A stretch of DNA of 64,000 nt, taken from contig NC_087251.1 in the NCBI RefSeq assembly GCF_037042905.1, positions 31,684,001 through 31,748,000 of the forward strand. Reading direction: 5' to 3'. Position numbers and translations under genes: made by a program. A model generated the notes under the pieces. The model was not told the DNA's origin and did not search any database. It saw only the letters and a program-made list of their open reading frames with translations. This document shows, piece by piece, positions 3,677 through 63,423 of the stretch (position 1 is the first letter of the stretch; every line of letters begins with the position of its first letter). Source of the DNA: Lytechinus pictus (taxonomy: Eukaryota).

Positions 3677-3973
3677 ATGGCAGTTGATCGACTGTACTAC
3701 CTCGCTCTGATCGTCGTCGTCGTCATATCGTCGTCAAACGCCTTCGACGTTAGATCCAACTCAACTCATTTTGGTGTTTCTCTAAATGGAGTTGAACTCA
3801 TACGCCATTCTCCAGAGGACACATTCCTTTATGTTGGGTCTGGACTACCAACATTTGAAGGCCAATTTGGCAATTATGATGTCGATGATTACATTGAAGA
3901 ACGTATCGCTCTAGTCGACTTCGTTGCTGATGGTTTAAACGTTTTCACGTTTAGTCGACAAAATATGTTACAG
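3677..3973 (+). CDS. SQase-like gene exon 1 (signal peptide plus N-terminal domain)
   Basis: MAVDRLYYLALIVVVVISSSNAF...YVGSG...GNYDVDDYIEERIAL resembles the YihQ N-terminus; donor CAG|GTCAGT at 3974. Confidence 0.85.
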
Positions 3974-6900
3974 GTCAGTTAATACAATAACATATTTCCT
4001 TCCTATTTAATTTATTAAAAGTGAGCATTTTAAAGAATGATATATAATAATTATTTCATAACGGATTTTTTTTCTTCTGAGAATGACGACGTTGAAATAA
4101 AGCTTATGTAAACTATAGTCATAATATATCTCAGAGGGAAACCTCAATGGCCCGTATTCTGAAGTTATAGGTTTAACTACAGTGTCAAAGTGTCAAAACT
4201 TTTATTAAGTTTTATAATGTTTTTTATGTTACTGTACTCTTTTCTGATTCATCGATAGTGAAGACAATCATCTATTTATACTGACAATTATGAATGATTT
4301 GAGAGCCAAATGAGCTGAAATATGATGTCTCTACCGTTAGTGATTTATGTAACAAATGGCAATCCATGCATACTTAAACCACAACTTTAAACCTGAGTTT
4401 AAGTTAAACCCGACTTCAGAATATACGGGCCAATGTATGCATTATTTTCTTTTTTATTTCAAAATCATATTGCAAAATTAACGGCACTCTACTTCACTGT
4501 GTATAATGTATATACAGTGCGTCCCAGAAAAAAACGAAACCGAGATTAAGCGATGATTTATCATAACTTAATCACAAATACAATAGACAAATGACCTACC
4601 AATGTAAAGCTTAGAATCTCCTCTTTCATCTGATATTACTTAGATTATTCCTCATTCACGCATAAGTGAGCAAAAACAATTTGAAGAAAGGATACCAAAA
4701 ACTCATTTGGCGGGGGGTATCTGAATTTCAAAAAGAAAATCACATGCCTAAAAAGTTCAATATCTGCTCTTTTATTTGATACATTAATCACAAAAAATGG
4801 TCAAGAAGTAAAAAAGTTATGTTCCCTCGAAACAATGCTTGTATTTCCATAATTTCATGAAATAAACGTGTTTTCACCGGTTTCCCACAGGAGCTATCGC
4901 ATGGTTAACAAAAGACTTAACTTCACAAAAGGGTGATAATTTTTCGTTCTAATGTGTCTGTTTAATTGATTTAGTTGTTAAATGGTCTGTAATAGTTTCC
5001 ATTAATGCATGGCTGATCGTCAACAAAACGGAGTGTCTAGTGAGTTTGAACGCTAGCCTGTAGAACTTCTTCATTTTATGAAATTATTGAAATTCAAGCC
5101 TTATTTCAAATAACCAGAACTTTGTTATTTCTTGACCATTTTCTGTAATTGAGGTATCAAATTAAAGAGCAGATATTGAACTTTTTAGCAATGTGGTTTT
5201 CTTTTTGAAACCCAGATACAGCCCGCCAAATTACTTTTTGGTATCCCCTCTTCAAATTGTTTTTGCTCACTCATGCGTGAATGAGAAATAATCTAAGTAA
5301 TATCAGATGAAAGAGGAGATTCTAAGCTTTACAATGGTAGGTCATTTGTCTATTGTATTTGTGATTAGGTTATGATAAATCATCGCTTAATCTCGGTTTC
5401 GTTTTTTCTGGGACGCACTGTATAGTGACAGATCATGTTTAACTCGATATCTTTGAATACCGAAATGAGGGGAAATGCCGGATCGTTTTGAACATATTTC
5501 TCTTTTCATGCTTTAAACTACATGAAAATATACACTTCGATGATAATGGATCATTAATAGAAGATTTGATAGTAATTTGCTTGATATTTTAATCATATTT
5601 CCATATAGAAATAGATAAATCCAATTTATCGGTCTACAAACGAAACTATGTCTTCCAAATCAAAATGTCTTCTTCATCTGATTCTTCTTTCTTTCTCTCC
5701 CCTTTTCTTCTTGTTTTCCTTCTATTTCTTCCTCTAACGTGTGTGTGTGTGTGGGGGGGGGGGAATAAGTCTGGGATGCAACGATGAATTATGATGTAAT
5801 TTAAAAAGGAAATTACAGAGGTATTGGCAAAAGCCCTTGTTCAAATAACAGTGATGCACGTAATCAAATCATGATTAATTAAAATAAATAAATTAATTAA
5901 TATTTACTTATTTATTTATTAATTTACTTATTTATCTATCTATCTATCTATTTATCTATCATTCATAATATATTTCAGTGTCATAAGTCTCTCCCTCTAA
6001 AATCTATGAACGGGGTCGCCCATTTCACTTTCAAAAATAAAAGTCGGCCTACACTACAATAGATGACCAATGTACCCAACGGAAAAAGAGGATCCTGCTT
6101 AACATTGCCCCATGCACGTATAGCACATTAAATCGCTGAAAGTTATAAATGAAGTTTGATCTTTTAACCTCTGCCCAATTCTCAATCATTGAGTGTTGCT
6201 TAGGCCTTGACCCTTTAAAGGTAAATCGCTGGTATTATTTGGGTTGCGGATATTACTGTTTGTTTCAGAAAGTTCTTGGCCATTATATTTCTCATGCCTC
6301 GACCTTAATAATTGTGTGAATTACTGCAGCAGGACGGCCAATATTTCTCTGATGTGAAAAATAAGAAATGATTAAAATTAGAAAAAAATTGACCTTCATC
6401 GATGATAAGTTTTTATATATAGCCACGATGTGACTTTATGGAGATATATATATATATATATATATAAAATCCCACTTCTGCAAAGGAACCATATAATGTA
6501 TTCGCACCAATGTTTATTTCTTTTCGTGAAACAGTTGCCAAAGTATATGAGATATTATGATGACTGATATTCGGATGCAATGTTTATGTATATTTTGTAG
6601 CTATATAACCATTTAATATTTCGGTGAGAGAGTGGTCACCATAACTATTAAAAACTCAGAAGATGTATGTGGCCACGTTGTTCAAAATAATATTTTCAAC
6701 TTTCTTTGGCAGTTTGGGGGAATAATATAATTTCGAGATGACTGAAAGGATTATACATGTATTGATGATAGAGGGTACGTTGCAGCATAATACTACACAG
6801 CTTCATCCCATGCAATCATTATTTTATTTCGAAAATATACAGAGAATATGCAGCATGAAATCTATCTTCTTATACGGAGGATAAACATGATAAACATACC

Positions 6901-9900
6901 CATTCACAAAACATTATACAATTATCAATGTACACTGTTAGAAAAAACAGAGGATTTTACAGAAGCAAAATTAAAAAACAGATTTTACAGAAAGAAGTAA
7001 CCAAATCATTCTGTAAATTGTTAAAACAGGAAAGATTTTATACAATTTTTATAGAATTTTACAGAACAGGTCTGCTTTAAAAAGGGGGAAAACAGCTATA
7101 TTTACAATAAATTTGTAAGGTTACATACACCAAATATCTATTTTCTGTAATTTTACACAAATGCATGTAATATTACACAGTGCAGTGAGATTACAGGTGT
7201 TCTCGAGACTCTGCTGCATGAATTTTTTTTTAAGGAAGAAATTTTCTAACAGTGTATAGGGGAGATTGGGGTTAGTTGGAACATTTTTGACAAAAATAGC
7301 TGTAAAGTCCAAATAGATTTTATACAAGAAACAATCAATATGTCAGCTTAAAGTATGTATCTAAGGGCTTCAAATGTACCCATAAAATTCTTTAAATGAT
7401 GCTTCGGGCTGAAAATATTTATATCTAAATAAATAGAGTAAAGTTCACAGAGCAAAATGCTGAAAATTTAATCAAAATCTGATTACAAATAGCGAAGTTA
7501 TTGAAATTCTAATATTTTGTGAAAACAGTGATATGCACATCGTCAGGAATATTCATTAGGTGGGCTGATGATGTCATATCCACACCTTCCCTTTTCTTAT
7601 GTTATTACATGAAATCATAAAATTGTTTTATCATTTCATCATGTGTGAATGATATATCCCCCTTATAATGAAATAAGTTGCAGCAATGAATATCTAATGC
7701 ACTTCATCAGTTTTCAATCCGATGTTTTCAGTTTTTAAGGAAACAATTTGAATAAACATAATTTCATATAATAAAATACAAAATTACAAGAGGGGATATG
7801 ACATCATCAATTTGATCATTGAATATTCATAAAGACAAGCCTAAAACTATTTCACCGGATAATGCAAAACTTTAAAATGTCATAGCTTTGTTATTCCTTG
7901 TCCGATTTTGATCAAATTTTCAGTGTTTTGTTTGTCTGTTCAAATCATATTAACCTCAGCCTGGAGTATCCCTTTAACTCTATGATGGTTACTGAAAAAA
8001 TCCACCTTGAACAAGACCCATCTAGTGTGTTCCAACTTACCCCATATACGGGGTAAGTTGGAACATGGTATGGGGTAAGTCGGAACACTCCATGGTTAAT
8101 TCAGAATTATACTAAAACTTCTACATGGTTCTGGCTTATTTGCTTATTTTTTCAAGTTCAAGATATTAAAGGTGTGTATTCTGATTTTTAAAATTTATGT
8201 TTTCTATTACACATGACATAGGCTACAGCCACTCACGCAAGCCGACTGTGTAGTAGAATTCTGTATATTACTTTATGTGCGTTTGATTTTACAAGCAATA
8301 TCATGTACTTCTGCACCAAATTTACATGGCATTAATCAGATAATTATTTAAACAGTGTAGTTTTTTAACTGTAACTCAGTAATAAAATGGATATGACGGA
8401 TGACACTGTACATATGAAATACAAATAGTGGCTTTCATGACAAATGTATGATGCCAAAATCTTATGACTCATTAGGTAGGGGCAAAGTTTGGGGATGATT
8501 ATAGGAAAACACACCTTAACTGTACTTTGAACTATTTATCTATACCATACAATAACAATTTAAGGTCAGAACTGAATGAAGGAAAAGGTTAATTATACTA
8601 AGAAATAATGAACATAGTTGTCAAACATGAGATGAAATGCACCTAGCATGTAAAACAAAAATACATTGGGTAATTAATTTGGCAACTAATTACTAAACAA
8701 TCATATTGCAGTTAAAATTTTAAACCAAAACATTTGCTGTTCCAAATAGCCCCTTCAATTTTGTTCTAACTAACCCCAGAGGCCCATGTGACATTTAAAA
8801 GTTTACAGCACAAAAAAGGGACTTCACCATGGCATATTAATAACCTTATTTTGTAGCTTGGTACAAGTATAAATTTTACCCCAAACTGGCCTACTTGATC
8901 TATAAACTGCTCCAAGATAATAATACATTTCTGAAAGAAAAAAAATACTCGGAAGGTGAAAAAAAAAAATCCTTTCTAACTTCACCAGGCTTGTTGCACA
9001 TGTGTTGTCTGTAATATGGTGGATGGTTGTTGATAATGGCATTAAATTGAGGGCAGTATTATGGGTGTTATAGAAAATTACAATGTTTCAACTTACCCCG
9101 CGTTCCAACTAACCCCAATCTCCTCTATGGTAGCCTATAATCTAGGCGGAGGATGTAGTTATTGTCTTTGCTGTTAAGCTGAACACAAGCGATACGTCTG
9201 ATCTGGCAAAGACTACGCAATGTGGCTGCGTAGTCTTCGCCAGATCAGACGTATCGCTTACGTTCAGCATAACAGCAAAGACAATAACTGCAGCCTCCGC
9301 CTACATTATAGGCTACCCCTATGTAGGCCTATATTGAAAGGTTGGCCGAGTAAAGAAATCAAACTTGCGAAAGATAATAATAATGATAATACTAATAGCT
9401 CGCATTGTTTCTCTGTCAAATAAACACGATCTCATCACTCCTGTTTTGAAAGACCTCCATTGGTTGCCCGAAAGGATCGCATATAGTTTTCAAAATTTTA
9501 CTGTTGGTTTATCATTATCATCAATGGATCCGCACCCGATTACAACAAATCTCTTATTACCCCACTATCAACCTAGTCTGCTGGGCAAACCCTTCACTCG
9601 AGTTAAGGGTCTGAATGTGCAGCCTACTCATGCCTTGTGTACTGAAGGCTCTCTCGATTGGAAGAGCAAGTTTCGTATGTGCTAGTCTTTGCGTGGAGGC
9701 ACACTTGTTAATCAAAGTTCCAATCAGGGTCTGTGCCTGCAGACTACTATCAACCTGCTATCATCCCAATCTAGTCTCTTACATATTCCACTATCTAAAA
9801 AATCCTGGGGCGATCGAGCCTTTGCTCATGCCGGACCAGCCCTGTGGAATTATACCACAGGAGCTGAAGAACTCAAACTCTGCATCATCCTTTAAGGGCA

Positions 9901-12900
9901 ACCTAAAATTGCATTTGTTCACCAGCAGGTACTATGTTTGAATACAGACATTTTTCCTCATTTGTAATTTATCCTTTTTGTACTTCTTAGTTCTCTTTAC
10001 TTTTATGTTTTGCTCTCTTCTAAGCGCCTTGAGCATTTAATCAAAATGGAAAAGACGCTATATAAATCATATATATGTATCTAATTATTATATAGCGCCA
10101 TCTATCTAGGAATATTCTATTCCGATGGTGCCATGAGCCTAATTACATCAGGAGGGCTAAAGATATTTGTTCGACCCAACCCATTCGAAATTTTTCAATT
10201 TGATATTGCTGATTGACAAAAATGTATGAATATGATTCAAAATCTAACACTGATTCTAGAAATGGTAACTACTGAACTTCCTTTGCCCAAATTGGGAAGA
10301 TATATCAATGATTTGGCACTATTTTTTGACTGGCGGAAGAATTGGGGCTATTTTACTGTTTCAGTTGATGAATTTGATCCTATCATAGTTATCTTCATAA
10401 ATGACGATTTATTTTTAAAATGAGCTGGCTACGATACCCTTCTCTGGTCAGATATGGAATGTCAGATATATATCCTATCCAAAGGTAGTAAACATTTGAC
10501 CCTCTAATTTCACATTTATTTTTTATGAATTTTTGTTAAGTGCCATTTTAACACACAAGTCTATGGGGAATGTTTTACGCGCGTGAGACCTATAAGTAAT
10601 ACAGGCGAATTCCCTATAGTGGATGGAATACCTGCCAAAACTCCTCAGAAGCAAACAATTTCTAACTGATATCAATATGTTTAGTCATCAAGTGGTGCAA
10701 AAAATGGATTTAATGGCTTAGCAAGGCTATATCAGGTAAAGTTAGTAGGTATGTGTATGTAAGCCTAGGAATGCATATAGACTGGTCAATGAGAGTCTAG
10801 GCCTCTTTATGTTCTGATTCATCATTGGTTTGTGCTAGTGTATGATCACCTACTTAATGTTAGAAAGACCTTTACAAATTGCTCATGTTAAAATTGTTCT
10901 TTGGAATGGGGTAGAGAGCTAGAGATAGAAATTTCTGAACTTTACTGAAGAGAACTAGAGTGGAAGCTTCAAGAAGGTATTTAGAAAAAGGCACAGAGTA
11001 AGGTAAGGTATATAATAGTGCTCAACTAAGGAGGGAGGGGGGTGGCTGTGTGATCCAATCTTAGTCTAGCCCCCCCCCCCTCTTTATAAGCCATGACATC
11101 TATAAAATTATCTTTCTTTCTCTCTCCTCTTTCTATCTATTTATGTATCTCTTTCTTCTTACATCTGATAGGCAATAGCCCTAGGAAGATTTTGATATAA
11201 TAGTTCAAATGCAAATGTACTAAAGTAATATAATATGTTATTGTTTCCTCATTCAATCTCATGTACTTCTAGTAATTATGTTTGAGGCAGTTCTGGTATC
11301 CTGATATCTACACCAAATTTACATACACCTTTATATTACAAGGAGAATAGGGGCCTATATTGTCATTGCATTCACTGTTGGGCTATATGCAGGAAGGATA
11401 TGTATACATCCATATAGTGAATATAGCATGTATGAGTAGCACATTAAAATGGGTCATTGCATAGAAAATTCATTTTCAATGCATTTCTTTGTGCTAGTGT
11501 AAGTGTACAGATATAAAAGAATAGCAAAGTAGCTATTAAAAAAAATAAAATTCATAGGTCATATAATATAGGTGCCATGAGCCTAATTACATCAGGAGGG
11601 CTAAAGATATTTGTTCGACCCAACCCATTCGAAATTTTTCAATTTGATATTGCTGATTGACAAAAATGTATGAATATGATTCAAAATCTAACACTGATTC
11701 TAGAAATGGTAACTACTGAACTTCCTTTGCCCAAATTGGGAAGATATATCAATGATTTGGCACTATTTTTTGACTGGCGGAAGAATTGGGGCTATTTTAC
11801 TGTTTCAGTTGATGAATTTGATCCTATCATAGTTATCTTCATAAATGACGATTTATTTTTAAAATGAGCTGGCTACGATACCCTTCTCTGGTCAGATATG
11901 GAATGTCAGATATATATCCTATCCAAAGGTAGTAAACATTTGACCCTCTAATTTCACATTTATTTTTTATGAATTTTTGTTAAGTGCCATTTTAACACAC
12001 AAGTCTATGGGGAATGTTTTACGCGCGTGAGACCTATAAGTAATACAGGCGAATTCCCTATAGTGGATGGAATACCTGCCAAAACTCCTCAGAAGCAAAC
12101 AATTTCTAACTGATATCAATATGTTTAGTCATCAAGTGGTGCAAAAAATGGATTTAATGGCTTAGCAAGGCTATATCAGGTAAAGTTAGTAGGTATGTGT
12201 ATGTAAGCCTAGGAATGCATATAGACTGGTCAATGAGAGTCTAGGCCTCTTTATGTTCTGATTCATCATTGGTTTGTGCTAGTGTATGATCACCTACTTA
12301 ATGTTAGAAAGACCTTTACAAATTGCTCATGTTAAAATTGTTCTTTGGAATGGGGTAGAGAGCTAGAGATAGAAATTTCTGAACTTTACTGAAGAGAACT
12401 AGAGTGGAAGCTTCAAGAAGGTATTTAGAAAAAGGCACAGAGTAAGGTAAGGTATATAATAGTGCTCAACTAAGGAGGGAGGGGGGTGGCTGTGTGATCC
12501 AATCTTAGTCTAGCCCCCCCCCCCTCTTTATAAGCCATGACATCTATAAAATTATCTTTCTTTCTCTCTCCTCTTTCTATCTATTTATGTATCTCTTTCT
12601 TCTTACATCTGATAGGCAATAGCCCTAGGAAGATTTTGATATAATAGTTCAAATGCAAATGTACTAAAGTAATATAATATGTTATTGTTTCCTCATTCAA
12701 TCTCATGTACTTCTAGTAATTATGTTTGAGGCAGTTCTGGTATCCTGATATCTACACCAAATTTACATACACCTTTATATTACAAGGAGAATAGGGGCCT
12801 ATATTGTCATTGCATTCACTGTTGGGCTATATGCAGGAAGGATATGTATACATCCATATAGTGAATATAGCATGTATGAGTAGCACATTAAAATGGGTCA

Positions 12901-27900: not shown

Positions 27901-30900
27901 TAGTGTAAGTGTACAGATATAAAAGAATAGCAAAGTAGCTATTAAAAAAAATAAAATTCATAGGTCATATAATATAGGTGCCATGAGCCTAATTACATCA
28001 GGAGGGCTAAAGATATTTGTTCGACCCAACCCATTCGAAATTTTTCAATTTGATATTGCTGATTGACAAAAATGTATGAATATGATTCAAAATCTAACAC
28101 TGATTCTAGAAATGGTAACTACTGAACTTCCTTTGCCCAAATTGGGAAGATATATCAATGATTTGGCACTATTTTTTGACTGGCGGAAGAATTGGGGCTA
28201 TTTTACTGTTTCAGTTGATGAATTTGATCCTATCATAGTTATCTTCATAAATGACGATTTATTTTTAAAATGAGCTGGCTACGATACCCTTCTCTGGTCA
28301 GATATGGAATGTCAGATATATATCCTATCCAAAGGTAGTAAACATTTGACCCTCTAATTTCACATTTATTTTTTATGAATTTTTGTTAAGTGCCATTTTA
28401 ACACACAAGTCTATGGGGAATGTTTTACGCGCGTGAGACCTATAAGTAATACAGGCGAATTCCCTATAGTGGATGGAATACCTGCCAAAACTCCTCAGAA
28501 GCAAACAATTTCTAACTGATATCAATATGTTTAGTCATCAAGTGGTGCAAAAAATGGATTTAATGGCTTAGCAAGGCTATATCAGGTAAAGTTAGTAGGT
28601 ATGTGTATGTAAGCCTAGGAATGCATATAGACTGGTCAATGAGAGTCTAGGCCTCTTTATGTTCTGATTCATCATTGGTTTGTGCTAGTGTATGATCACC
28701 TACTTAATGTTAGAAAGACCTTTACAAATTGCTCATGTTAAAATTGTTCTTTGGAATGGGGTAGAGAGCTAGAGATAGAAATTTCTGAACTTTACTGAAG
28801 AGAACTAGAGTGGAAGCTTCAAGAAGGTATTTAGAAAAAGGCACAGAGTAAGGTAAGGTATATAATAGTGCTCAACTAAGGAGGGAGGGGGGTGGCTGTG
28901 TGATCCAATCTTAGTCTAGCCCCCCCCCCCCCTCTTTATAAGCCATGACATCTATAAAATTATCTTTCTTTCTCTCTCCTCTTTCTATCTATTTATGTAT
29001 CTCTTTCTTCTTACATCTGATAGGCAATAGCCCTAGGAAGATTTTGATATAATAGTTCAAATGCAAATGTACTAAAGTAATATAATATGTTATTGTTTCC
29101 TCATTCAATCTCATGTACTTCTAGTAATTATGTTTGAGGCAGTTCTGGTATCCTGATATCTACACCAAATTTACATACACCTTTATATTACAAGGAGAAT
29201 AGGGGCCTATATTGTCATTGCATTCACTGTTGGGCTATATGCAGGAAGGATATGTATACATCCATATAGTGAATATAGCATGTATGAGTAGCACATTAAA
29301 ATGGGTCATTGCATAGAAAATTCATTTTCAATGCATTTCTTTGTGCTAGTGTAAGTGTACAGATATAAAAGAATAGCAAAGTAGCTATTAAAAAAAATAA
29401 AATTCATAGGTCATATAATATAAGTAATACAGGCGAATTCCCTATAGTGGATGGAATACCTGCCAAAACTCCTCAGAAGCAAACAATTTCTAACTGATAT
29501 CAATATGTTTAGTCATCAAGTGGTGCAAAAAATGGATTTAATGGCTTAGCAAGGCTATATCAGGTAAAGTTAGTAGGTATGTGTATGTAAGCCTAGGAAT
29601 GCATATAGACTGGTCAATGAGAGTCTAGGCCTCTTTATGTTCTGATTCATCATTGGTTTGTGCTAGTGTATGATCACCTACTTAATGTTAGAAAGACCTT
29701 TACAAATTGCTCATGTTAAAATTGTTCTTTGGAATGGGGTAGAGAGCTAGAGATAGAAATTTCTGAACTTTACTGAAGAGAACTAGAGTGGAAGCTTCAA
29801 GAAGGTATTTAGAAAAAGGCACAGAGTAAGGTAAGGTATATAATAGTGCTCAACTAAGGAGGGAGGGGGGTGGCTGTGTGATCCAATCTTAGTCTAGCCC
29901 CCCCCCCCTCTTTATAAGCCATGACATCTATAAAATTATCTTTCTTTCTCTCTCCTCTTTCTATCTATTTATGTATCTCTTTCTTCTTACATCTGATAGG
30001 CAATAGCCCTAGGAAGATTTTGATATAATAGTTCAAATGCAAATGTACTAAAGTAATATAATATGTTATTGTTTCCTCATTCAATCTCATGTACTTCTAG
30101 TAATTATGTTTGAGGCAGTTCTGGTATCCTGATATCTACACCAAATTTACATACACCTTTATATTACAAGGAGAATAGGGGCCTATATTGTCATTGCATT
30201 CACTGTTGGGCTATATGCAGGAAGGATATGTATACATCCATATAGTGAATATAGCATGTATGAGTAGCACATTAAAATGGGTCATTGCATAGAAAATTCA
30301 TTTTCAATGCATTTCTTTGTGCTAGTGTAAGTGTACAGATATAAAAGAATAGCAAAGTAGCTATTAAAAAAAATAAAATTCATAGGTCATATAATATAGG
30401 TGCCATGAGCCTAATTACATCAGGAGGGCTAAAGATATTTGTTCGACCCAACCCATTCGAAATTTTTCAATTTGATATTGCTGATTGACAAAAATGTATG
30501 AATATGATTCAAAATCTAACACTGATTCTAGAAATGGTAACTACTGAACTTCCTTTGCCCAAATTGGGAAGATATATCAATGATTTGGCACTATTTTTTG
30601 ACTGGCGGAAGAATTGGGGCTATTTTACTGTTTCAGTTGATGAATTTGATCCTATCATAGTTATCTTCATAAATGACGATTTATTTTTAAAATGAGCTGG
30701 CTACGATACCCTTCTCTGGTCAGATATGGAATGTCAGATATATATCCTATCCAAAGGTAGTAAACATTTGACCCTCTAATTTCACATTTATTTTTTATGA
30801 ATTTTTGTTAAGTGCCATTTTAACACACAAGTCTATGGGGAATGTTTTACGCGCGTGAGACCTATAAGTAATACAGGCGAATTCCCTATAGTGGATGGAA

Positions 30901-33900
30901 TACCTGCCAAAACTCCTCAGAAGCAAACAATTTCTAACTGATATCAATATGTTTAGTCATCAAGTGGTGCAAAAAATGGATTTAATGGCTTAGCAAGGCT
31001 ATATCAGGTAAAGTTAGTAGGTATGTGTATGTAAGCCTAGGAATGCATATAGACTGGTCAATGAGAGTCTAGGCCTCTTTATGTTCTGATTCATCATTGG
31101 TTTGTGCTAGTGTATGATCACCTACTTAATGTTAGAAAGACCTTTACAAATTGCTCATGTTAAAATTGTTCTTTGGAATGGGGTAGAGAGCTAGAGATAG
31201 AAATTTCTGAACTTTACTGAAGAGAACTAGAGTGGAAGCTTCAAGAAGGTATTTAGAAAAAGGCACAGAGTAAGGTAAGGTATATAATAGTGCTCAACTA
31301 AGGAGGGAGGGGGGTGGCTGTGTGATCCAATCTTAGTCTAGCCCCCCCCCCCCTCTTTATAAGCCATGACATCTATAAAATTATCTTTCTTTCTCTCTCC
31401 TCTTTCTATCTATTTATGTATCTCTTTCTTCTTACATCTGATAGGCAATAGCCCTAGGAAGATTTTGATATAATAGTTCAAATGCAAATGTACTAAAGTA
31501 ATATAATATGTTATTGTTTCCTCATTCAATCTCATGTACTTCTAGTAATTATGTTTGAGGCAGTTCTGGTATCCTGATATCTACACCAAATTTACATACA
31601 CCTTTATATTACAAGGAGAATAGGGGCCTATATTGTCATTGCATTCACTGTTGGGCTATATGCAGGAAGGATATGTATACATCCATATAGTGAATATAGC
31701 ATGTATGAGTAGCACATTAAAATGGGTCATTGCATAGAAAATTCATTTTCAATGCATTTCTTTGTGCTAGTGTAAGTGTACAGATATAAAAGAATAGCAA
31801 AGTAGCTATTAAAAAAAATAAAATTCATAGGTCATATAATATAGGTGCCATGAGCCTAATTACATCAGGAGGGCTAAAGATATTTGTTCGACCCAACCCA
31901 TTCGAAATTTTTCAATTTGATATTGCTGATTGACAAAAATGTATGAATATGATTCAAAATCTAACACTGATTCTAGAAATGGTAACTACTGAACTTCCTT
32001 TGCCCAAATTGGGAAGATATATCAATGATTTGGCACTATTTTTTGACTGGCGGAAGAATTGGGGCTATTTTACTGTTTCAGTTGATGAATTTGATCCTAT
32101 CATAGTTATCTTCATAAATGACGATTTATTTTTAAAATGAGCTGGCTACGATACCCTTCTCTGGTCAGATATGGAATGTCAGATATATATCCTATCCAAA
32201 GGTAGTAAACATTTGACCCTCTAATTTCACATTTATTTTTTATGAATTTTTGTTAAGTGCCATTTTAACACACAAGTCTATGGGGAATGTTTTACGCGCG
32301 TGAGACCCGATGCGCGTTATTATTATTACCCCGGCTTTATCTCGAGCTGCCTCTCCGCGCTAATGCATTCAATGAATTAATCCAGCTAGGTACCCATTCA
32401 CCTCACCTGGTTTGAGATAAGATAAACCCTGTACAGTAATTCTTACGAAAAATCCACTTTAGATCATTTTATGATAGTTTGTTGGGAACGGAAATTCTTA
32501 TATTGGCTGTACATGCAGGCGTGGATCCATGGGGCCGACGCCCCCCCCCCTTAAAAAGGGAGAGGGGGAAAGAAAGATTGGAAAGAAAAAGAAGGGGATG
32601 GGAGGAAAGAAAAGGGAAGGAAAGTGAGAGGGGGAAAGAAGGGGAAAGTGAAAGAGAAGGGAAGAAATGAGGGAGAGGAAGAAAGGAAACAGAGAAAGAA
32701 AATGAAAAGAAGGGAAATGAAGGGGGAAAGAAAGGGAAGAAAGAGAGATAGAAAGCAAAGGGAAAAGGGGAGGAAAAAGAAAAGAAAGGAGAATAGAGAT
32801 AGAGAAGGAAAAGAAGGGAGAGTGCGAGAGGAAAGGTGAGGCAGACAAAAGAGGAGGAAAAGAATGGGAAAGGAGAGACGAATCAAACAAAGGAAATAGA
32901 GAGGAAAAAGGAGAGAGAAGAGAATGGATAAGGGAGAGAGGAAAGAAAGGGCAGAGAAACAAAATGAAGGTCAAGACTGAGGGAGGGGGCTATAAACATT
33001 CATGGAAGAGAGGATGATTATAGAAGAAAAAGATAACACGGAATGAGAAAGAAAAAAAAGAGGATGAAAAAGAAATTTTAAAAAGGGATACCCTCTCTTA
33101 GCTTAGGTATAAACGGCAGGGCTCGCTGAGTTTGCCGGAGGCAAGGGGACCGTACCCCCCCTCCCCCCCATAAAAAAGGGGGAGAGAAAAAAAAGGCATT
33201 TGATGGGAAGGGAAATGAAAATAAAAGGAAAATTGAAAGGGGACTAATGGAGAAGGGGAGAAAGAGATCTTGCCGAAACGGTTCTGTTCCCCCTCCTCCA
33301 TGTAGTAGCAAAGGACAAGGTGGGGCAAAGATGCGTTTAAAAAATGAAGACGTCCGGGGCCGTACGGCCTAGTCATCATGCTGCTTGCTCACCCCTCCGA
33401 ATAATTAAAAGATAAGCACTTAGTCTAAAAAAAATAGGATAAAACGAAGGAGATGGAGGCGGAAATGAAGAGAAATAAATAAAGAAAAGAAAAATATAAA
33501 AATTAGACAGAAAAAAAGGAAAAGCGTTTGCGAAATGTGGTGTTAATTTCCCCCCACAAAATTGTGAACTTCGAGCCTGTTGTTCCGAATAAATGGCTGT
33601 GGGAAAGTCTCCATAAGATGTAGGCGGTCCGATGAGAGAAAAATAAAAAGAATAAAAGAAGAGGACAAAAATAAATAAAAAGATGAAGAATGAAGAAAAT
33701 CAGAGGAGGGGGATTTGCAAATTGCCTAAAAGGAACAAAATGAATATCTCGCGTACTACGCGGTTGAATTGTCCGTTTAATGAGATACACATTTAATATG
33801 TTTAGAGGATAAGACGGCTATAAAAATATAAAAGAACTTACGTTTCTGGTCGCGCTTCAAGCATTCATTATTTTGAACAAAATGAGATACCCATCCTGTT

Positions 33901-36900
33901 CACGATTACAAAAAGTAATTAAATTTCCCGTTTTCACGAACGATTTAACTTCTGCTCCCTCTCTGACTTTTATACAGGGGCGCATTTGAAAGGAATAAAA
34001 TATATGAAAGCATATTCATCCCATCTCTCGGTAAAATAAGACATAATTAATGATCATTGAAGCATTGCGAGTTACGCTTCTGTGACCACAAAAAAGTCTG
34101 AAAATATATAATTATCGACTGCACTTAATGAATTATAATCATTCATGCTAAACTGATCACAATTTGCAAGTATATATGTTTAAAACAAAGGCTATTCTTT
34201 TCTCTTTCGTAAGATAATGTGTATAATTTATTAGATTTCATGAAAGTCGGGTTAGGAGTTCAGACTTCGAGGCCAGCATCGTACATCCACTCATTTTTCA
34301 ATGTTGTAATTGAATTGAATTGAATAACTTAATTGTCCAGAAAGGAAATTCTTTCACAGGTAAAAATGTAGATACAAAACAAAAATGTGTATACAGTATC
34401 CCATTATATTGCATTATATATGATAATTCGATTTTGATGTCATCAACTGAGAGCAGAAAACTCTTCACTTTTGCCTGTGAGTACATACAATAAAACTGTA
34501 CACTGTTTTGATGAATTGTTACATATTTTTCTGTATATATTTGCCATTTTATATTGCATTATCTATGATAATTCGATTTTGATGTCATCTCCGAGCAGAA
34601 AACTCTTCACTTTGCTTGTGTGTACATACAATAAAACTGTACACTGTTTTGAATGAATTGTTACATATTCTTCTGTATATTTTTTTTTGCATGACTATCT
34701 ATAAGCTTTATCAACTTTTGAATTCAGGTTCAAATCCGCTTGGTGAGTGATGCTTCTGAATCCCCATACGTTGAGTTCACAAGTATAGCTGAAGGCATCA
34801 ATCGAATCTGGTTACGTCTGGTAGCAGAGAAAGATGAACATGTATTTGGTGGAGGCTCCCAGTTCTCTCATTTCAATATGAGAGGGTATAAATTCCCAAT
34901 CTGGATTCAAGAACAAGTAAGATTTTATATACCTTTCCTTGCTTAATTGGTACATGTTTCGTGTCCATGTTTCATTGCTTGCCATGTTGGTGATTTTAAA
35001 TTATTTCCTGATAAACAAAATGCAAAACTTTATTGCAAGCAAAATAGAGATGTAGATCTGGGGCCCGTTTCATAAAGGACTTGCAACTGTTGTAATTTTG
35101 CCATTGTGGCAACTACCATGGTAACCTTGATTCTGATTGGCTGATGAGCCCTGTTACCATGGTAGTTGCCATAATGGCAAAGTTACAACAGTTGAAAGTC
35201 CTTTATGAAACGGGCCCCCTCTCCTGTATTTTTTCCTGCTGTTGAGAGAGAGAGAGAGAGAAGGGGGGGGGGGGGGCTCTACCGTGTGACAAAAAAAAAA
35301 CTTGACACCTCACAAATCTCCAATTTAAGGAAAAATATATGTCATGAACGCATAATCATTATATATGGCTGGAAAATAATATCTTCTCTCAAATAATTCG
35401 ATACCATATTCATGTGGTATGTCTTAATAATCAGGAGGTATTCTTTGCAGCGATATAAATTTTGGTTTGCGCCAAAGTGGGGCATGACTGCAATGAATGA
35501 ATCCAGATGTCAATGATGTCATAATGCTACATGAGTTAGTAAACATATTTGGAAATCCCATTTCGATTAAATTAATTTGAGAATTGATACTAAAAAGTGT
35601 TTATTAAAAAATTAGTATGTAAATTATTGAAAAGAAAAGGTGTTTTGAAATTTGTTTTAATGCAACCCTTGTAGGATTATGACATCATTGATATCGGGAT
35701 ACATTCATTGCAGTCATGCCTTACTTTAGCACAAATCAAAATTTACATCACTGCAAAGAATACCTCCTGATCATCCAAGCATTAACACATAAAATATGGT
35801 ATCAAATTATTGGGAGAACATACTCTTTCAGACCATATATATTAATTATGTGTTCATGACACATTTTTTCCTTAAATCGGGGATTTGTGAGGTACAAAGT
35901 TTATTTTTACTCACACAGTATATCTGGTGTTAAAACAAGATGGAAGCAATGTCATTCTTCCTTGTTCGTTTGATGAGATAGATTCCCTTGACTCTTAAGA
36001 AGCAGGATGTTTGATATGTTTCACAAGATTACAAGAAGTACTTTGATCTGCAAGATAGATTTCCACATTTATTGCTGTAATATAACATTACCATGGAAAT
36101 GCAGTTTCCAACACATGAAAATTATGACGAGATACCAAACATGACTCACAAAGTGCTTTTTGTTTTCTGATGATGTTTTCATCAATTTGACAATCATCAT
36201 AATCAAATGCAATCTAGGTTTCCCAGTTCCTATAATGGAGAGAACTGACCACCTTTATTACGTCATGATTAGCTTATTTTTGAAGTTTCGACATAGTTTA
36301 AGCTGACAAAACATGCTACTTCATTTTCAACAGGGAGTTGGACGAGACAAGAACTACGAGATCACATTCAAAGCCGATCAGAGGGACGGTGGAGGTGGTG
36401 ACTACTATACAACCTATTGGGCTCAACCAACCTTTGTTTCCTCTCGTCTCTACTATGCTCACTTTGACATCACCACCTACTCTGAACTGGACTTTCGAGC
36501 CGATCACTTCCATGAGATCCACATCTGGGGAAATACTCTCAGCAAGTTCCATTTCTTCACTGGAAGTAATTACACCGATCTTCTCGGGGAGTTAACTGGG
36601 TACCTTGGAAGACAACCGATGCCTCCTGAATGGATCTATAATGGCACTATCTTAGGAGTCCAAGGGGGTACTGATATCATGCTTCAATACATAGACATGG
36701 CTGAAGTGAGTAAAGAATAATCTTAACCAACTGTAGGCCTACATAAAATGTCATAAATTTGACCTATATTGATTCTCAGGACTTCTTAACATTTAAATGC
36801 ATGTTATATTTTATAATTACAAAAGAAGTCAACGAGGAATTATATTTCTTCAAGCAACAGTTATAACAGTTATAACTTGACAAGCATGAAAAGGATGCCT

Positions 36901-38863
36901 GTCATTTATCCAGTATCAATGTGGCATAATCCTATAAGAGATGACTGATATTAATGACCAGAAATTATGCCTATTGAGTACCAGTACTATCATTTGCTTT
37001 TTTAATGTTGTCTAGCTATTGGAACTACTTTAAATTCCTTCTACTTGATACAGGAACATGGAATCAAAGTGAGTGGAGTCTGGATCCAGGATTGGGTTGG
37101 CCGTATCACCACGTCTTTTGGAAGACGTCTGTTCTGGAACTGGGAGTGGAACCCTGAGCAGTACCCCAACCTTGACACAGTGATACCGCAACTCAAACAG
37201 CGAGGTATCAGGGTGCTTGTCTATGCCAATCCAAACCTCAACAGATTAGGGAGTTTGTATGAGGAAGCAGCAGCAGGAGACTACCTCATCAAGAACATTT
37301 CTGGGGATCCATACATAGTTGACTATGGTGAGTTCTTCTGCGGAATCGTGGACTTCACAAACCCTGCGGCTGCTCAGTGGTACAAGGACCGTATCATTAA
37401 AAAAAATATGCTGGACCTGGGTGTCAGTGGTTGGATGGCTGATTTTGGAGAGTACCTCCCTATAGATGCGGTGTTTCATAGTGGAGCTAAGGGTACAGAT
37501 ATCCATAATCAATGGCCTGCCATCTGGGCTCAGGTGAACAGAGAAGGGGTGGAGGAGGGTGGCAAGATGGGTGATATCCTATTTTGGATGCGTGCCGGCT
37601 ATACAGGATCCCAGAGGTACAGTGTCATGACGTGGGCTGGTGATCAGTTTGTTGACTATGGCCTTGCTGATGGCATAGCATCCGTGATCCCCGGTACCCT
37701 ATCTTTGGGTATGTCAGGGTACGGAATGAACCATTTCGACATTGGAGGGTACACATCTCTCTTTGGAGTCACCAGGACTGAGGAACTCTTTCTCCGTTAT
37801 GCCGAGATGGCGGCCTTTACTACCATGATGCGCACTCATGAGGGTAACAGACCTGATGAGAACTGGCAGTTCTACTCAAGCTCACACACCATGTACGAGT
37901 TCGCCCGCCATACCAAGATATACGTGGCCCTCAATGACTACGTCAACACCACCCTGCGTGAGAACCATGAACACGGCATTCCCGTTCAACGTCCACTCTT
38001 CCTGCATTATGAGGACGACGAGCGCACCTATGACATCCAATACCAGTATATGTTCGGACCGGATCTTCTGGTCGCTCCAGTGATAGAGCAGGGTCAAGAA
38101 AACTGGGATGTTTATCTTCCTGTAGATGACTGGATATTCCTTTGGGATGAAGACATCACCTCAGATGGTGGAGAGACCATAACAGTTCCTTCTCCAATGG
38201 GTTACATACCAGTCTTCTTTAGGTCCCAATCTCCATGGGCTGACACTTTTAGACAGCTGAGAGATATCGAGGCAGGCAAGTACTATATTTCTCTTAAAAT
38301 GATCTGATACACTCCCCAAAATAAGTAAATTCACTAAAATTATATGGATCAGTAAATTCTTTGTAAGTTACAATTCTTTGTGATAGAGACATAAGATCTG
38401 GAATTTTCATGTAGACACAATTTACATGAAAGAGGTACGAGTATGGTTGACACACACACACACAAAATAAATGAAAGGCAGATGCGTTTTCTGGAGAGCA
38501 TGAAACACGATGGTAACGAGGTGTTTGTCAAACCTCAAAACATCTTTGAATGTTTCAGTTAAATATGAGAAAATATTCAGGTTTCATGTACATCAGAAAA
38601 TGAACTTTAAGAATGCAATGATTGTAATGTGCTTTTGATGCCCTATTATCCAGTCTGGGGACCAATTCTCCCTATTCACATGTGTTGTAATGAGCATGAT
38701 TGAAAATGTTATCTCATCTTTTTACATTTGCCTCTACATTTTTTCTGTTTATGCAGTAACGGTAACTCCGACCGAACAGATGACGACTGCTGGATGTCCC
38801 ACTATAATGGCATCATATTTACTTCTCGCTTTGTGTTGGACCCTAATGACATTATTGTGGTAG
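3677..38863 (+). CDS. GH31 sulfoquinovosidase-like (YihQ-like) alpha-glycosidase, secreted and probably GPI-anchored; join(3677..3973,34728..34916,36334..36705,37054..38275,38757..38863), about 728 aa
   Basis: Exons splice in frame (phases 0,0,0,1). Translation is colinear with E. coli YihQ as recalled: NRIWLRL, EQGVGR, GGDYY, LGRQP, LGVQGGT, WIQDW..TSFGRRLFWNW, GWMADFGEYLP (nucleophile), WAGDQ (acid/base), DIGGYT, MRTHEGNRP, RPLFLHYEDD. Hydrophobic N-terminal signal peptide. Confidence 0.92.
4149..4431. mobile_element. MITE with 3-bp TSD (Harbinger-like)
   Basis: GGCCCGTATTCTGAAGT ... ACTTCAGAATATACGGGCC, with AAT on both sides. Confidence 0.7.
4515..5420. mobile_element. Tc1/mariner-type MITE with long TIRs
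   Basis: TA|CAGTGCGTCCCAGAAAAAAACGAAACCGAG ... CTCGGTTTCGTTTTTTCTGGGACGCACTG|TA; inverted arms of about 300 bp. Confidence 0.88.
6933..7254. mobile_element. MITE with CACTGTTAGAAAA termini
   Basis: TA|CACTGTTAGAAAA ... TTTTCTAACAGTG|TA. Confidence 0.7.
7259..9125. mobile_element. Non-autonomous DNA transposon (~1.9 kb) with a nested insertion
   Basis: TA|GGGGAGATTGGGGTTAGTTGGAAC ... GTTCCAACTAACCCCAATCTCCTC|TA. The internal ~7405-7975 segment belongs to a family also seen at ~39697-40260 and ~59790-60310. Confidence 0.75.
9131..9315. mobile_element. Hairpin MITE with TAG...CTA termini
   Basis: About 88-bp near-perfect inverted arms TAGCCTATAAT.../...ATTATAGGCTA. Confidence 0.75.
9395..10070 (+). 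mobile_element. 5'-truncated L2-like LINE 3' fragment (degenerate)
   Basis: Frameshifted remnants ARIV..KHDLITPVLKDLHWLP, WGDRAFAHAGPALWN and SFKGNLKLHLF; 3' end taagcgccttgagc...gacgctatataaat. Confidence 0.8.
9574..9746. mobile_element. 173-bp MITE with 9-bp TSD inserted in the L2 fragment
   Basis: CTATCAACC|TAGTCTGCTGGGCAAACCCT ... AGGGTCTGTGCCTGCAGACTA|CTATCAACC. Confidence 0.8.
10127..10590. repeat. First 464-bp terminal direct-repeat module, with imperfect TIRs
   Basis: 5' end GGTGCCATGAGCCTAA versus reverse complement of the 3' end GGTCTCACGCGCGTAA (11/16 match); internal copies are flanked by TATA on both sides. Confidence 0.85.
10127..32307. mobile_element. 22.2-kb tandem array of a composite element: 14 x 464-bp terminal module and 16 x ~980-bp spacer, flanked by CGAT TSD
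   Basis: Starts and ends with a full module (GGTGCC...GAGACC); flanks read ttcCGAT|GG and CC|CGATgcg. Basic period 1444-1445 bp; higher-order period about 6757 bp. Confidence 0.9.
32560..33075. repeat. Purine-rich (GA) low-complexity tract
   Basis: Almost only G and A on the + strand; produces the spurious K/R/E-rich and F/L/S-rich ORFs. Confidence 0.9.
34400..34682. repeat. Direct tandem duplication of about 143 bp just upstream of SQase-like exon 2
   Basis: tatattgcattat..atgataattcgattttgatgtcatc...gttacatatt occurs twice. Confidence 0.8.
34728..34916 (+). CDS. SQase-like gene exon 2
   Basis: Acceptor ttcag|GTT; encodes NRIWLRLVAEKDEHVFGGGSQFSHFNMRG...IQEQ; donor CAA|GTAAGA. Confidence 0.9.
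35080..35217. mobile_element. Hairpin MITE
   Basis: GGGCCCGTTTCATAAAGGACTT ... AAGTCCTTTATGAAACGGGCCC; arms of about 60 bp. Confidence 0.8.
35280..35920. mobile_element. Tc1/mariner-like MITE with long diverged TIRs
   Basis: TACCGTGTGAC..CCTCACAAATCTCC versus GGGGATTTGTGAGG..TCACACAGTA; inverted similarity extends about 240 bp. Confidence 0.75.
36334..36705 (+). CDS. SQase-like gene exon 3
   Basis: Acceptor caacag|GGA; encodes GVGRDK...GGDYY...LGRQPMPPEWIYNGTILGVQGGT; donor GAA|GTGAGT. Confidence 0.92.
37054..38275 (+). CDS. SQase-like gene exon 4 (most of the catalytic TIM barrel and the C-terminal beta domain)
   Basis: Acceptor atacag|GAA; 1222-nt exon containing WMADFGE and WAGDQ; ends at the GC donor CAG|GCAAGT. 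Confidence 0.93.
38757..38863 (+). CDS. SQase-like gene exon 5 (Thr-rich stalk plus GPI-signal-like hydrophobic tail)
   Basis: Polypyrimidine tract then atgcag|TA; the phase-1 join gives VTVTPTEQMTTAGCPTIMASYLLLALCWTLMTLLW*. Confidence 0.75.
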
Positions 38864-39696
38864 CTATCCACATTTCTTTGTCAAGAAAGTCTACCCTACG
38901 CAAGACTATAAATATGCTTTTTTGTAGAATCATCTGCTCAGCGATCACCTGGCATAATGATGATAATGTGCACAAATTGAGCACACACTGTCCATGAATG
39001 CTCATGGCACTAGAATCCAGATTCAACCCGTTACTCCCAACATGACTTGTAAAAAATTGACTCTTGTAATCTAAAAGTTAACATAGTATGTAACACTATA
39101 ATCAGTAGCTTTCAAATACTGATCATTATATAGGCTATATTCAGTAGCTGTAGTTGGATAGAAGATCTGAACAAAACTAGCATGTTGGTGCCATGGTGAT
39201 GACAAATTTGATAGCCCATACTTTTTTTTTCAATGGACATCAAACCCTCATCTCTGGTAAGTCATTCCTTGCAATCATAAAAGATTATGTGTTTTCACAG
39301 AGTCAACACATGCAGGAGAAGCAAAACTATTCATTAAAATTTACATATAATGACCGATCTTGGTTCCTGAAATACGTCTTGCTTGAAAGTAGAGAACATC
39401 TCTTCACATGTACTTCAAGGAAATGAAGAAATCTGTGTTAAAGATCAACACATTCATAATCATTGTATAAGTTTGGTACATATTCTTCAAATAAATCTTT
39501 GTAATAAAACCTTATGACATGAGATGTTGGGTTGGTTCTGTCATAATAAAAACTCTAAACAATGTTTTAAGTGTTTCCCTGCAATAATCAAGACATGAGA
39601 CCCCATTGAGAATGTGGTTCTGAAAACCAGTTCAGGAGATGGTGATGAGAACTTTAATAAAGCAATTTTCTAAGCTGGTTTTGCAAAGTGGTTTAA

Positions 39697-62540: not shown

Positions 62541-63423
62541 GTAAGTAGAGAATATTGTGGCTTTATATAAAACAATATGGTTTTGCTGATTTAGAGCTCT
62601 TTCTCTGACCTCTGGGAAGTTGCTTAAACATACAATTTTTTTATCGTTACTGGGCCATTGAACCTTTACAATGTACCAGCAGAAATGTAATATTCCATGA
62701 AGTTTGTATTACAAAAGAAATATCAAATTATATTGTTGCTAAATTGAGGTCAGATGTCACTGCAGGCTAATTGACCTGAAGATAAAAGAAAGTTGTCAGA
62801 GCTTTCAAATTCTTTCTGTGATACTCAGAGTAATGAAAAAATATGTCACCTGCAAAGTATCACTCTTTAAATACCCCCACAAACCAATTATAACTCTTTA
62901 AATGCCCCACAAACATTCTAATAAGAGCTGAAACTGTAAGGTAGAGTGTGGGATTAGCCCCTTACAGTCCAATTGTACTGGCAAAAAAATTATTGCCGCC
63001 TCTTTTCATGCTTTGTTTTCATGTCCACAATATGGATTTTGCTTTTATCGATATACTTAATCTTGTTATTTGCCCACCTTTATGGAGTATCGTTATTTTT
63101 CATCATTTGCATTTTTTATTATATCGATTTTTCTTTGGGCATCTCTCTCTCCAGTAATTATCTTTGATGTATTTTTACTGTCTTTGCTCTCTGACGCGTT
63201 CGTCCGCTCTGCCTACGAAGATTTCTGCTAAATGCTGCCCTCTCTCGAACCTTTATGAATTCGTTATTTGTTTTTATGTGTTTTTGTTTCTCTGTATCAC
63301 TGTTACTTATTTGTTCCCACACAGGACCTTTTATTTTGATTACTCTTCTGTTACTAACTCAATGCCGAAAGTAGTAGTGAATGTTGAGACGCTAACCGTA
63401 CTTCCGTGAATACTTTAACTAAT

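Follow-up and report, generated by a model that had tools for sequence, protein, structure and literature searches.

Few organic sulfur compounds are more abundant than the sulfoquinovose lipids, whose breakdown has been attributed to bacteria and, lately, to algae as well. The 64,000-nucleotide stretch of the Lytechinus pictus genome analysed here (the window) raises the question of whether a sea urchin encodes its own enzyme for releasing the sulfolipid head group, as had been predicted from the DNA. Such a host-encoded hydrolase remains the best reading of the locus, which carries an animal, spliced, YihQ-type gene with the full residue set. It is likely that the locus is a functional urchin YihQ-type GH31 sulfoquinovosidase (SQase) gene and an orthologue of the bilaterian 'animal SQase', whose product would be secreted, probably GPI-tethered, and most likely used for sulfolipid digestion in the gut.

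The idea is not new. The original prediction allowed for eukaryotic homologues already being in databases, and they are, since the name 'sulfoquinovosidase-like' is in use at NCBI; the family is also the subject of a 2026 preprint (Uchida et al., bioRxiv 10.64898/2026.02.11.705467, February 2026). In the text of that preprint, 'animal SQase' is described from 65 species including echinoderms, the dietary-sulfolipid hypothesis is already proposed for animals or aquatic invertebrates, and Speciale et al. (2016) are credited with having noted earlier that some animal proteins resemble bacterial SQase. The urchin gene resembles the 'animal SQase' as described there in its monophyletic animal clade, single PF01055 domain, seven key residues, predicted signal peptide, and GPI/TM tail (in some echinoderms). 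The main text of the preprint never uses the words 'urchin', 'Lytechinus', 'intron', or 'recombinant'; its supplements may list the gene. What the present analysis adds to that main text is the exact gene model with its exons, the splice evidence from urchin, and an ancient head-to-head (tandem, inverted) paralogue with a Tyr508 to Phe change, together with the echinoid-wide age of the duplication. No publication pairing 'sulfoquinovosidase' with 'sea urchin', and no enzyme assay of any animal SQase, was found in the literature searched. The algal SqgA enzymes are likewise eukaryote-encoded GH31 sulfoquinovosidases, reported to be functionally validated and bacterially derived (Ma et al., Nat Commun 2025, PMC12780224), but they are algal and are said there to cluster with gammaproteobacterial homologues.

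The gene has five exons and encodes a protein of 728 aa (Table 1). The length and both ends that had been predicted agree with the exon model, which translates exactly to P0001, and the protein is letter-for-letter identical to P0001 and to the NCBI record 'sulfoquinovosidase-like [Lytechinus pictus]'. The donor of exon 1 reads CAG/GTCAGT, and residues 23-105 form beta strands in the AlphaFold2 model (pLDDT 82-96). Exon 2 has a weak Gal_mutarotas_2 match (1.2e-05) at 26.1 bits, slightly below the cut-off of 27. Exon 5 encodes a linker rich in Thr, the small residues A-G-C, and, at the very end, 15 hydrophobic residues, a combination resembling a GPI-attachment signal, and the 3' UTR extends past 39400, which contigs reach with 244-271 additional letters. 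A hidden gene within intron 1 was considered and rejected, as the ORFs there are only short or low-complexity; the sole long ORF checked (9338-9685) contains no Pfam domain. In intron 2, read depth in the thousands and many loose ends at 35068-35234 identify a repeat. If intron 4 were retained, translation would end at the stop codon 38305-38307, yielding a form without the tail.

Table 1. Features of the sulfoquinovosidase-like gene, in window coordinates
Feature	Position	Strand	Description
Coding sequence	3677-38863	+	five exons
Exon 1	3677..3973	+	residues 1-99; start codon, signal-peptide-like N-terminus, start of N-terminal beta-sandwich
Signal-peptide-like stretch	3677-3742	+	residues 1-22; in exon 1
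Intron 1	3974..34727	+	30,754 bases, GT..AG; repeat debris
Purine-rich low-complexity block	about 32400-33800	+	in intron 1
Exon 2	34728..34916	+	residues 100-162; part of N-terminal galactose-mutarotase-like domain
Intron 2	34917..36333	+	1,417 bases, GT..AG; high-copy dispersed repeat at about 35068-35900
Exon 3	36334..36705	+	residues 163-286; Q272 (= EcYihQ Q262) in LGVQGG
LGVQGG	36652-36669	+	exon 3
Intron 3	36706..37053	+	348 bases, GT..AG
Exon 4	37054..38275	+	residues 287-693; GH31 (beta/alpha)8 catalytic barrel and C-terminal beta domain
WIQDW	37081-37095	+	exon 4
FGRRLFW	37117-37137	+	exon 4
WMADFGE	37432-37452	+	exon 4; nucleophile
WAGDQ	37633-37647	+	exon 4; acid/base
DIGGYT	37738-37755	+	exon 4
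RTHEGN	37831-37848	+	exon 4
Intron 4	38276..38756	+	481 bases, GC..AG, donor G/GCAAGT
Exon 5, coding part	38757..38863	+	residues 694-728 and stop

The gene is real, spliced (seen for introns 2-4), and expressed in sea urchin, which bears out the prediction of an animal, intron-containing gene. Reads were aligned over 34400-39400, a stretch that does not include the joint between exons 1 and 2; they came from three runs of organism A that are guessed to be RNA (X1, X2, and X15) and from X23, which belongs to another species (organism B) and is the only run recorded as RNA. Spliced contigs were found in 3/3 of the organism-A runs aligned, and these transcript-like contigs and the RNA reads skip introns 2-4 exactly. 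The joint across intron 2 (34916 to 36334) is carried by one contig each in X1, X2, and X15 and by 26 raw X23 RNA reads, and that across intron 3 (36705 to 37054) by contigs of the same three runs and 22 raw X23 RNA reads, with a depth of 0 in the bin 36738-36904 of intron 3 in all four runs. The joint across intron 4 is listed as 38271 to 38753, which, with four ambiguous letters, equals 38275 to 38757; it is present in contigs of the three runs and in 12 raw RNA reads, and read depth within this intron is about 0-0.6. The joining of exon 1 to exon 2 is deduced from the identical NCBI model, the colinearity with YihQ, and 397 letters upstream of exon 2 in X15 record 6. The gene is under purifying selection, and 24 of the 27 exonic differences to organism B that were listed and scored are synonymous (181 further differences exist). 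A pseudogene is ruled out by the intact gene model, the RNA splices, and the mostly synonymous differences.

All seven predicted motifs were recovered on the + strand in a single frame. When aligned with E. coli YihQ (taken from NC_000913), the urchin protein is 47% identical and colinear over the full length. Its identity to the other GH31 genes of the urchin is no more than 23-30%. The predicted likeness to YihQ over the usual animal GH31s stands. The eight key YihQ residues are all kept, namely (urchin equivalents in brackets) Q262 (Q272), Q288 (Q298), R301 (R311), W304 (W314), the nucleophile D405 (D416), the acid/base D472 (D483), Y508 (Y519), and H537 (H548). They comprise the full Q-Q-R-W-Y set that had been predicted, with both catalytic Asp and His537; neither D416 nor D483 varies in alignments A1 and A2, the sulfonate-binding triad Arg301/Trp304/Tyr508 is present, and so are Gln262, His537, and Gln288 (for which Glu is the accepted variant, with Lys at 262). 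The R-W-Y sulfonate motif is defined in PMC12780224 and in the Fig. 4 legend of preprint 10.64898/2026.02.11.705467; in the available portions of PMC12780224 it is written 'Q/E-RWY', and the label 'QQRWY' was not found there. Searched by itself, exon 4 reaches E 1e-154 to 1e-133 with solved sulfoquinovosidases, compared with 1e-42 for the next GH31 class, a similarity far beyond chance.

The predicted fold leads to the same family. The AlphaFold2 model (pLDDT 89.7, pTM 0.88) and Pfam (PF01055, 3.7e-44; PF21365, 3e-23) together give a complete GH31 architecture of N-terminal beta-sandwich, (beta/alpha)8 barrel, and C-terminal beta domain. The best 23 PDB matches of the predicted fold are all characterised sulfoquinovosidases, i.e., BmSQase (8r56), EcYihQ (5aed/5oht), and the enzymes of E. 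rectale (6pnr) and A. tumefaciens (5ohs/5ohy/7ofx), with a TM of 0.88-0.90 when normalised to the query and 0.96-0.98 when normalised to the target; the superposition on YihQ and other solved SQases gave an rmsd of 1.4-2.0 A. The next structural class (YicI-type) reaches a TM of about 0.67. With the NCBIfam YihQ equivalog NF007746 the protein reaches 884.3 bits, above the cut-off of 553. By PDB ranking, NF007746, and tree, the protein thus groups with SQases and not with other GH31 subfamilies. The bacterial enzymes (E. coli YihQ, BmSQase 8r56, E. rectale 6pnr, and A. tumefaciens SmoI 5ohs/5ohy) share with it the three-domain fold, the catalytic Asp pair, the Q-Q and R-W-Y residues, and the His, but the urchin gene is eukaryotic and has four introns.

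Given this full conservation with solved bacterial enzymes, the protein is predicted to act as a retaining alpha-glycosidase. D416 would attack the anomeric carbon of an alpha-sulfoquinovoside with D483 as acid/base, while the C6 sulfonate would be gripped by R311, W314, and Y519 and the sugar hydroxyls held by Q298, Q272, and H548. The expected products would be sulfoquinovose and either glycerol (from SQGro) or diacylglycerol (from SQDG). The enzyme very probably cleaves sulfoquinovose off algal membrane lipids, and its most likely role would be the digestion of sulfolipid from an algal diet at the gut epithelium.

The protein differs from the cytoplasmic YihQ in its ends. Hydrophobicity over 15-mers peaks within residues 1-23, a stretch followed by S-N-A/F, which by hydropathy and the -3/-1 rule resembles a signal peptide; there are five N-X-S/T sequons; and the C-terminus, inspected for a GPI signal, has a hydropathy of 1.9-2.0 at residues 710-728 and no charged tail. 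The hydrophobic N-terminus, the sequons, and the hydrophobic tail are absent in 4/4 bacterial sequences compared. The protein would therefore enter the secretory pathway and is probably N-glycosylated and probably GPI-tethered to the outer membrane face, and the signal-like stretch, sequons, and GPI-type tail together suggest an ectoenzyme that is anchored in the membrane and most likely serves digestion. In this it is probably similar to MGAM and SI, which have an N-terminal anchor, but unlike them it is single-domain with a predicted C-terminal anchor. In preprint 10.64898/2026.02.11.705467, GPI or TM predictions are mentioned 'in some echinoderms'.

Downstream steps appear to be missing from the host. 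A search of the 812-Mb genome, exon by exon, with the sulfo-EMP enzymes YihS and YihT of E. coli as single-protein queries found nothing at E <= 0.001, by which absence is not proven; YihV, YihU, YihR, and YihO, broad families matching generic animal genes, and the sulfo-ED, -TAL, -TK, and -SMO routes were left out. In contrast to the yih operon, where the SQase comes with an SQ isomerase, SF kinase, SFP aldolase, SLA reductase, and transporters, no sulfoglycolysis or transporter genes adjoin the gene, and its neighbours in the window are unrelated. Together these results indicate a lone SQase outside a yih sulfo-EMP-type system. As no sulfo-EMP enzyme was found with the two queries, the released sulfoquinovose may go to gut microbes or excretion, and the host would gain no more than the glycerol or lipid part, or would profit indirectly.

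A paralogue lies head-to-head, in inverted orientation, about 29 kb upstream of the gene and shares three intron positions with it. In L. pictus this copy has Phe in place of Tyr508 and lacks the anchor exon and the hydrophobic tail. The duplication is ancient and echinoid-wide. Phe is also found at the Tyr508 position in several orthologues, so that the sulfonate pocket may be less constrained in animals. The tails vary as well: the Diadema setosum paralogue, the orthologue of this upstream copy, ends in KDEL, which fits poorly with a purely digestive role for the entire family, and the Antedon protein ends in HEEL. It is conceivable, if doubtful, that echinoids possess two sulfoquinovosidases from an ancient duplication, which came to differ in location and perhaps also in substrate, i.e., a surface-anchored copy with the full R-W-Y, here the one in the window, and an intracellular (ER/lysosomal) Phe508 copy. 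If so, the intracellular paralogue might process absorbed sulfolipid or another 6-substituted glucoside rather than take part in luminal digestion.

The origin of the gene was assessed in a FastTree phylogeny of 153 tips (midpoint-rooted, SH-like supports). The urchin protein groups with echinoderm, hemichordate, amphioxus, mollusc, and arthropod proteins in a monophyletic, bilaterian animal clade of 23 tips (support 1.0), in which 7 protostome tips (0.997) are separated from 16 deuterostome tips (0.755). This clade sits nested among bacterial sequences, and bacterial homologues are 54-59% identical across exon 4, as would be expected if the assembly were contaminated or the gene had been transferred very recently. 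The chance of this is practically nil: the branching order follows the bilaterian species tree, which speaks for neither contamination nor recent transfer; the gene has four spliceosomal introns, one of 30.7 kb, with the splices of introns 2-4 confirmed in RNA; and it lies on a 49.7-Mb contig amid repeats and an exon of an animal CDP-alcohol phosphatidyltransferase. Contamination is ruled out by the intron-bearing gene model, the RNA splices, the gene tree, and the introns shared with the paralogue. The nesting among bacteria, as seen with midpoint rooting and SH-like supports, may hint at an ancient transfer.

With the gene thus an animal one, its substrate and site of action have to be weighed. 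The family is still labelled 'alpha-glucosidase' by NCBIfam and many other sources, and the protein might be a general GH31 alpha-glucosidase or alpha-xylosidase that only resembles YihQ and has no specificity for sulfoquinovose. This is very improbable, as every sulfonate-binding residue is retained, the scores for the alpha-xylosidase model (219, cut-off 606) and the MalA model (143, cut-off 800) fall far short, TM is 0.9 to SQases against 0.67 to YicI-type enzymes, and the other, distant GH31 genes in the genome could serve starch-type substrates. MGAM, SI, GAA, and GANAB belong to the same CAZy family and share the retaining mechanism, but they are distant matches (E 1e-18 to 1e-27) without the sulfonate pocket. 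For YihQ, kcat/KM is higher for pNP-SQ than for pNP-Glc by orders of magnitude. An enzyme of the same fold could also act internally, in lysosomes, phagocytes, or the ER, with sulfonated or sulfated alpha-glucosides, either absorbed or endogenous, as its substrates. The differing family tails are in line with such a role, SQDG has been detected in edible sea urchins, i.e., in urchin tissue eaten as food (PMC12248970), and a lysosomal location is left open in the text of preprint 10.64898/2026.02.11.705467. We consider it unlikely, however, because the hydrophobic, uncharged GPI-type tail of the urchin protein suggests a place on the cell surface, its sulfonate pocket does not differ from that of enzymes acting on SQ glycosides, and, in the same preprint, SQase expression in molluscs and amphioxus is described as highest in digestive organs.

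A tethered sulfoquinovosidase for gut digestion accordingly remains the preferred reading. If grazers such as sea urchins themselves cleave the head group at the gut surface, sulfolipid turnover in kelp and seagrass food webs would start under the control of hosts rather than of microbes, and the hosts would feed sulfoquinovose to their gut bacteria. The window offers a pair of urchin genes amenable to experiment, in a species used as a laboratory model, with exact exons, a predicted anchor, and a natural Tyr-to-Phe paralogue.

The five exons in the table below, set by script from stop-to-stop open reading frames and the public protein record P0001, join to give exactly that 728-residue record, 'sulfoquinovosidase-like [Lytechinus pictus]', so that the coordinates, protein length and peptide motifs of the original prediction were all right. 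Each of the seven named motifs was found once by motif search, on the plus strand and in a single frame, within window 36652-37848. Introns 1-3 are GT-AG, with intron 1 spanning 30.75 kb, and intron 4 (window 38276-38756) is GC-AG with the donor G/GCAAGT. Read-through of intron 4 leads to a stop ten codons on, without the hydrophobic tail encoded by the last exon; judged from this reading frame, a soluble isoform arising via intron retention is conceivable. RNA depth inside this intron is near zero, i.e., there is little sign of retention in the reads.

Coordinates of the sulfoquinovosidase gene, neighbouring open reading frames and the paralogue (C7 is the 49.7-Mb L. pictus contig carrying both copies)
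Feature	Coordinates	Strand	Basis
Exon 1	window 3677-3973	+	translation match to P0001
Exon 2	window 34728-34916	+	translation match to P0001
Exon 3	window 36334-36705	+	translation match to P0001
Exon 4	window 37054-38275	+	translation match to P0001
Exon 5	window 38757-38863	+	translation match to P0001
CDP-alcohol phosphatidyltransferase ORF	window 52790-53200	-	Pfam, 1.5e-10
Endonuclease/exonuclease/phosphatase-like open frame	window 63388-63999, runs off end	+	4e-4, under Pfam cut-off
Paralogue	C7:31658634 down to 31653796	-	script mapping; loci L002, L005, L010

Splicing, without which the original prediction would not hold, is seen at the joints of introns 2-4 in both contigs and raw RNA reads. 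Exon 4 sequence is present in 18 listed runs, none of them recorded as RNA. Three L. pictus contig sets (X1, X2, and X15, whose RNA nature is a guess) and a raw RNA-seq run from a sister species (X23) were mapped on window 34400-39400. One long record in each contig set skips 34916->36334, 36705->37054, and 38271->38753, the last being equivalent to 38275->38757 given four ambiguous letters, and the X23 reads cross the same joints (26, 22, and 12 reads for introns 2, 3, and 4, respectively). Depth is zero or nearly so in the intron bins 36738-36904 and 38408-38741. The contigs extend to 39400 and past as 3' UTR, and the X15 record carries 397 extra letters 5' of exon 2, which by size alone fit exon 1 plus a leader of ~100 nt. 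The sulfoquinovosidase gene is under purifying selection: among the 27 listed exonic differences from the sister-species reads that were scored (181 more lie beyond these), 24 are synonymous and three are conservative replacements.

The enzyme class was assessed at the level of sequence, residues, and fold. Exon 4 encodes both the GH31 barrel and the C-terminal domain (Pfam), and in a solved-structure sequence search it matches the sulfoquinovosidases (SQases) BmSQase (8r56), E. coli YihQ (5aed), E. rectale SQase (6pnr), and A. tumefaciens SQase (5ohs/5ohy) at E 1e-154 to 1e-133, versus no better than 1e-42 for the next GH31 class. Aligned with YihQ (K-12 record), the urchin protein is 47% identical over its full length; YihQ residues Q262, Q288, R301, W304, D405, D472, and H537 (urchin Q272, Q298, R311, W314, D416, D483, and H548) are invariant and Y508 (Y519) is present. 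The protein scores 884 bits with the NCBI YihQ equivalog model NF007746 (cut-off 553), and is far under the cut-offs of the alpha-xylosidase and MalA models. An AlphaFold2 model from 35 aligned sequences (pLDDT 89.7, pTM 0.88) superposes best on solved SQases including YihQ: its top 23 PDB matches are all characterised SQases (target TM 0.96-0.98, rmsd 1.4-2.0 A), followed by YicI-type and other GH31 enzymes at TM ~0.67. The full YihQ-type sulfonate-binding set read from the DNA is upheld by the alignment, and membership of the YihQ class by profile model and fold. Of the 270 family members aligned, 56 carry the set QQQWDDYH, with Gln at the sulfonate-binding Arg301, and other Gln301 variants occur too; these sequences, which fall among representatives P0121-P0269 and are bacterial where named (Athalassotoga, Caldisericum, Sphaerochaeta), have no bearing on the animal gene.

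A word-indexed search with exon 4 ranked proteins of echinoderms, hemichordates, amphioxus, and molluscs (59-99% identity) ahead of bacterial ones (54-59%), and when 1.84 billion representatives were searched exhaustively, 1,559 proteins matched at E <= 1e-30. From the 270 aligned sequences, 153 of 560-830 aa were retained, with the 102 near-redundant proteins P0019-P0120 thinned to 14, for a midpoint-rooted FastTree phylogeny (LG+gamma, 634 columns). All named animals and five unnamed representatives, identified as limpet, scallop, springtail, spiny lobster, and barnacle, form one 23-tip clade (support 1.0), comprising a protostome group of 7 tips (0.997) and a deuterostome group of 16 tips (0.755), the latter branching in the order hemichordates, amphioxus, crinoid, asteroids, holothuroids, and echinoids. 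The shape of this clade does not match contamination or recent transfer. Its sister, with weak support (0.72), is a bacterial group including E. coli YihQ. Under midpoint rooting, the pattern would fit either one ancient acquisition or vertical inheritance within Bilateria.

Contig C7 also carries, on its minus strand and ~25-30 kb upstream of where the window begins, a second copy with 67% identity across the exon-4 region; the two genes are head to head, with starts ~29 kb apart. This copy has four exons, with three introns at the aligned positions of introns 1-3, and lacks the putative anchor exon (exon 5); its intron 1 is only ~0.6 kb versus 30.7 kb. The two L. pictus copies each group with a Diadema protein (support 1.0 per pair, 0.998 for both pairs together), so the duplication is older than the split of those urchin lineages. 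The paralogue has Phe in place of Tyr508 (DIGAFT), as do proteins of Asterias, Branchiostoma, Nucella, and Batillaria and two unnamed fragments.

Elsewhere in the window, the CDP-alcohol phosphatidyltransferase ORF probably belongs, as one exon, to a neighbouring gene for phospholipid synthesis, the terminal open frame probably marks where a non-LTR retrotransposon begins, and repeats are also present. Intron 2 contains a high-copy dispersed repeat (35068-35900; summed contig depth in the tens of thousands, raw RNA ~600 per strand, many loose ends and strand-switch joints). In intron 1, the stretch 32400-33800 is of low complexity and rich in purines (GA); its GC and AT skews are strong, it yields long spurious ORFs on either strand, and it includes a tandem unit of 75 bp at 32650-32790.

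The N-terminus, hydrophobic after a single Arg and ending S-N-A/F, is signal-peptide-like, and N-X-S/T sequons occur five times in the protein. In the part encoded by the last exon, a Thr-rich linker and small residues precede a hydrophobic end of 15 residues without charged tail, and by inspection this arrangement resembles a GPI-attachment signal of classical shape. All three features are absent from the four bacterial sequences compared. In other echinoderms, the C-terminus is KDEL in Diadema setosum P0003, which falls on the paralogue's branch, and HEEL in the crinoid Antedon mediterranea P0010, ER-retention-type signals at odds with a secreted digestive enzyme. Single queries with E. coli YihS (SQ isomerase) and YihT (SFP aldolase), exon by exon, gave no match in the 812-Mb genome; by these queries the gene is a lone SQase that belongs to no sulfoglycolysis system. 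The urchin protein probably acts as a retaining alpha-sulfoquinovosidase on the outer membrane face, most likely in the gut epithelium, where it would free sulfoquinovose from dietary algal SQGro or SQDG, leaving the glycerol or lipid part to the host and the sulfosugar to microbes. SQDG has been reported in edible urchins (PMC12248970).

An animal-encoded YihQ-type enzyme, as originally proposed, is supported by gene model, splicing, residues, fold, and tree, and the accompanying caveat that eukaryotic homologues might already be in databases proved justified: NCBI and UniProt already name these proteins 'sulfoquinovosidase(-like)'. The preprint of Uchida et al. (bioRxiv 10.64898/2026.02.11.705467, Feb 2026) reports SQase homologues across nine animal phyla, Echinodermata included (65 species in all), with the same seven residues conserved, signal peptides, GPI or TM tails predicted 'in some echinoderms', expression in digestive organs of molluscs and amphioxus, and a giant clam without the downstream pathway; it proposes the dietary-sulfolipid hypothesis for animals and credits Speciale et al. 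2016 with noting animal homologues earlier. Its main text makes no mention of urchins, introns, or an enzyme assay, and a literature search pairing 'sulfoquinovosidase' with 'sea urchin' found no paper. Functional SQases are described in eukaryotic algae (Ma et al. 2025, PMC12780224). The original observation is borne out, but the finding was known before; the additions are modest, namely an exact gene model, proof of splicing in urchins, a putative anchor exon, and an ancient inverted duplication in which one copy has Phe for Tyr.
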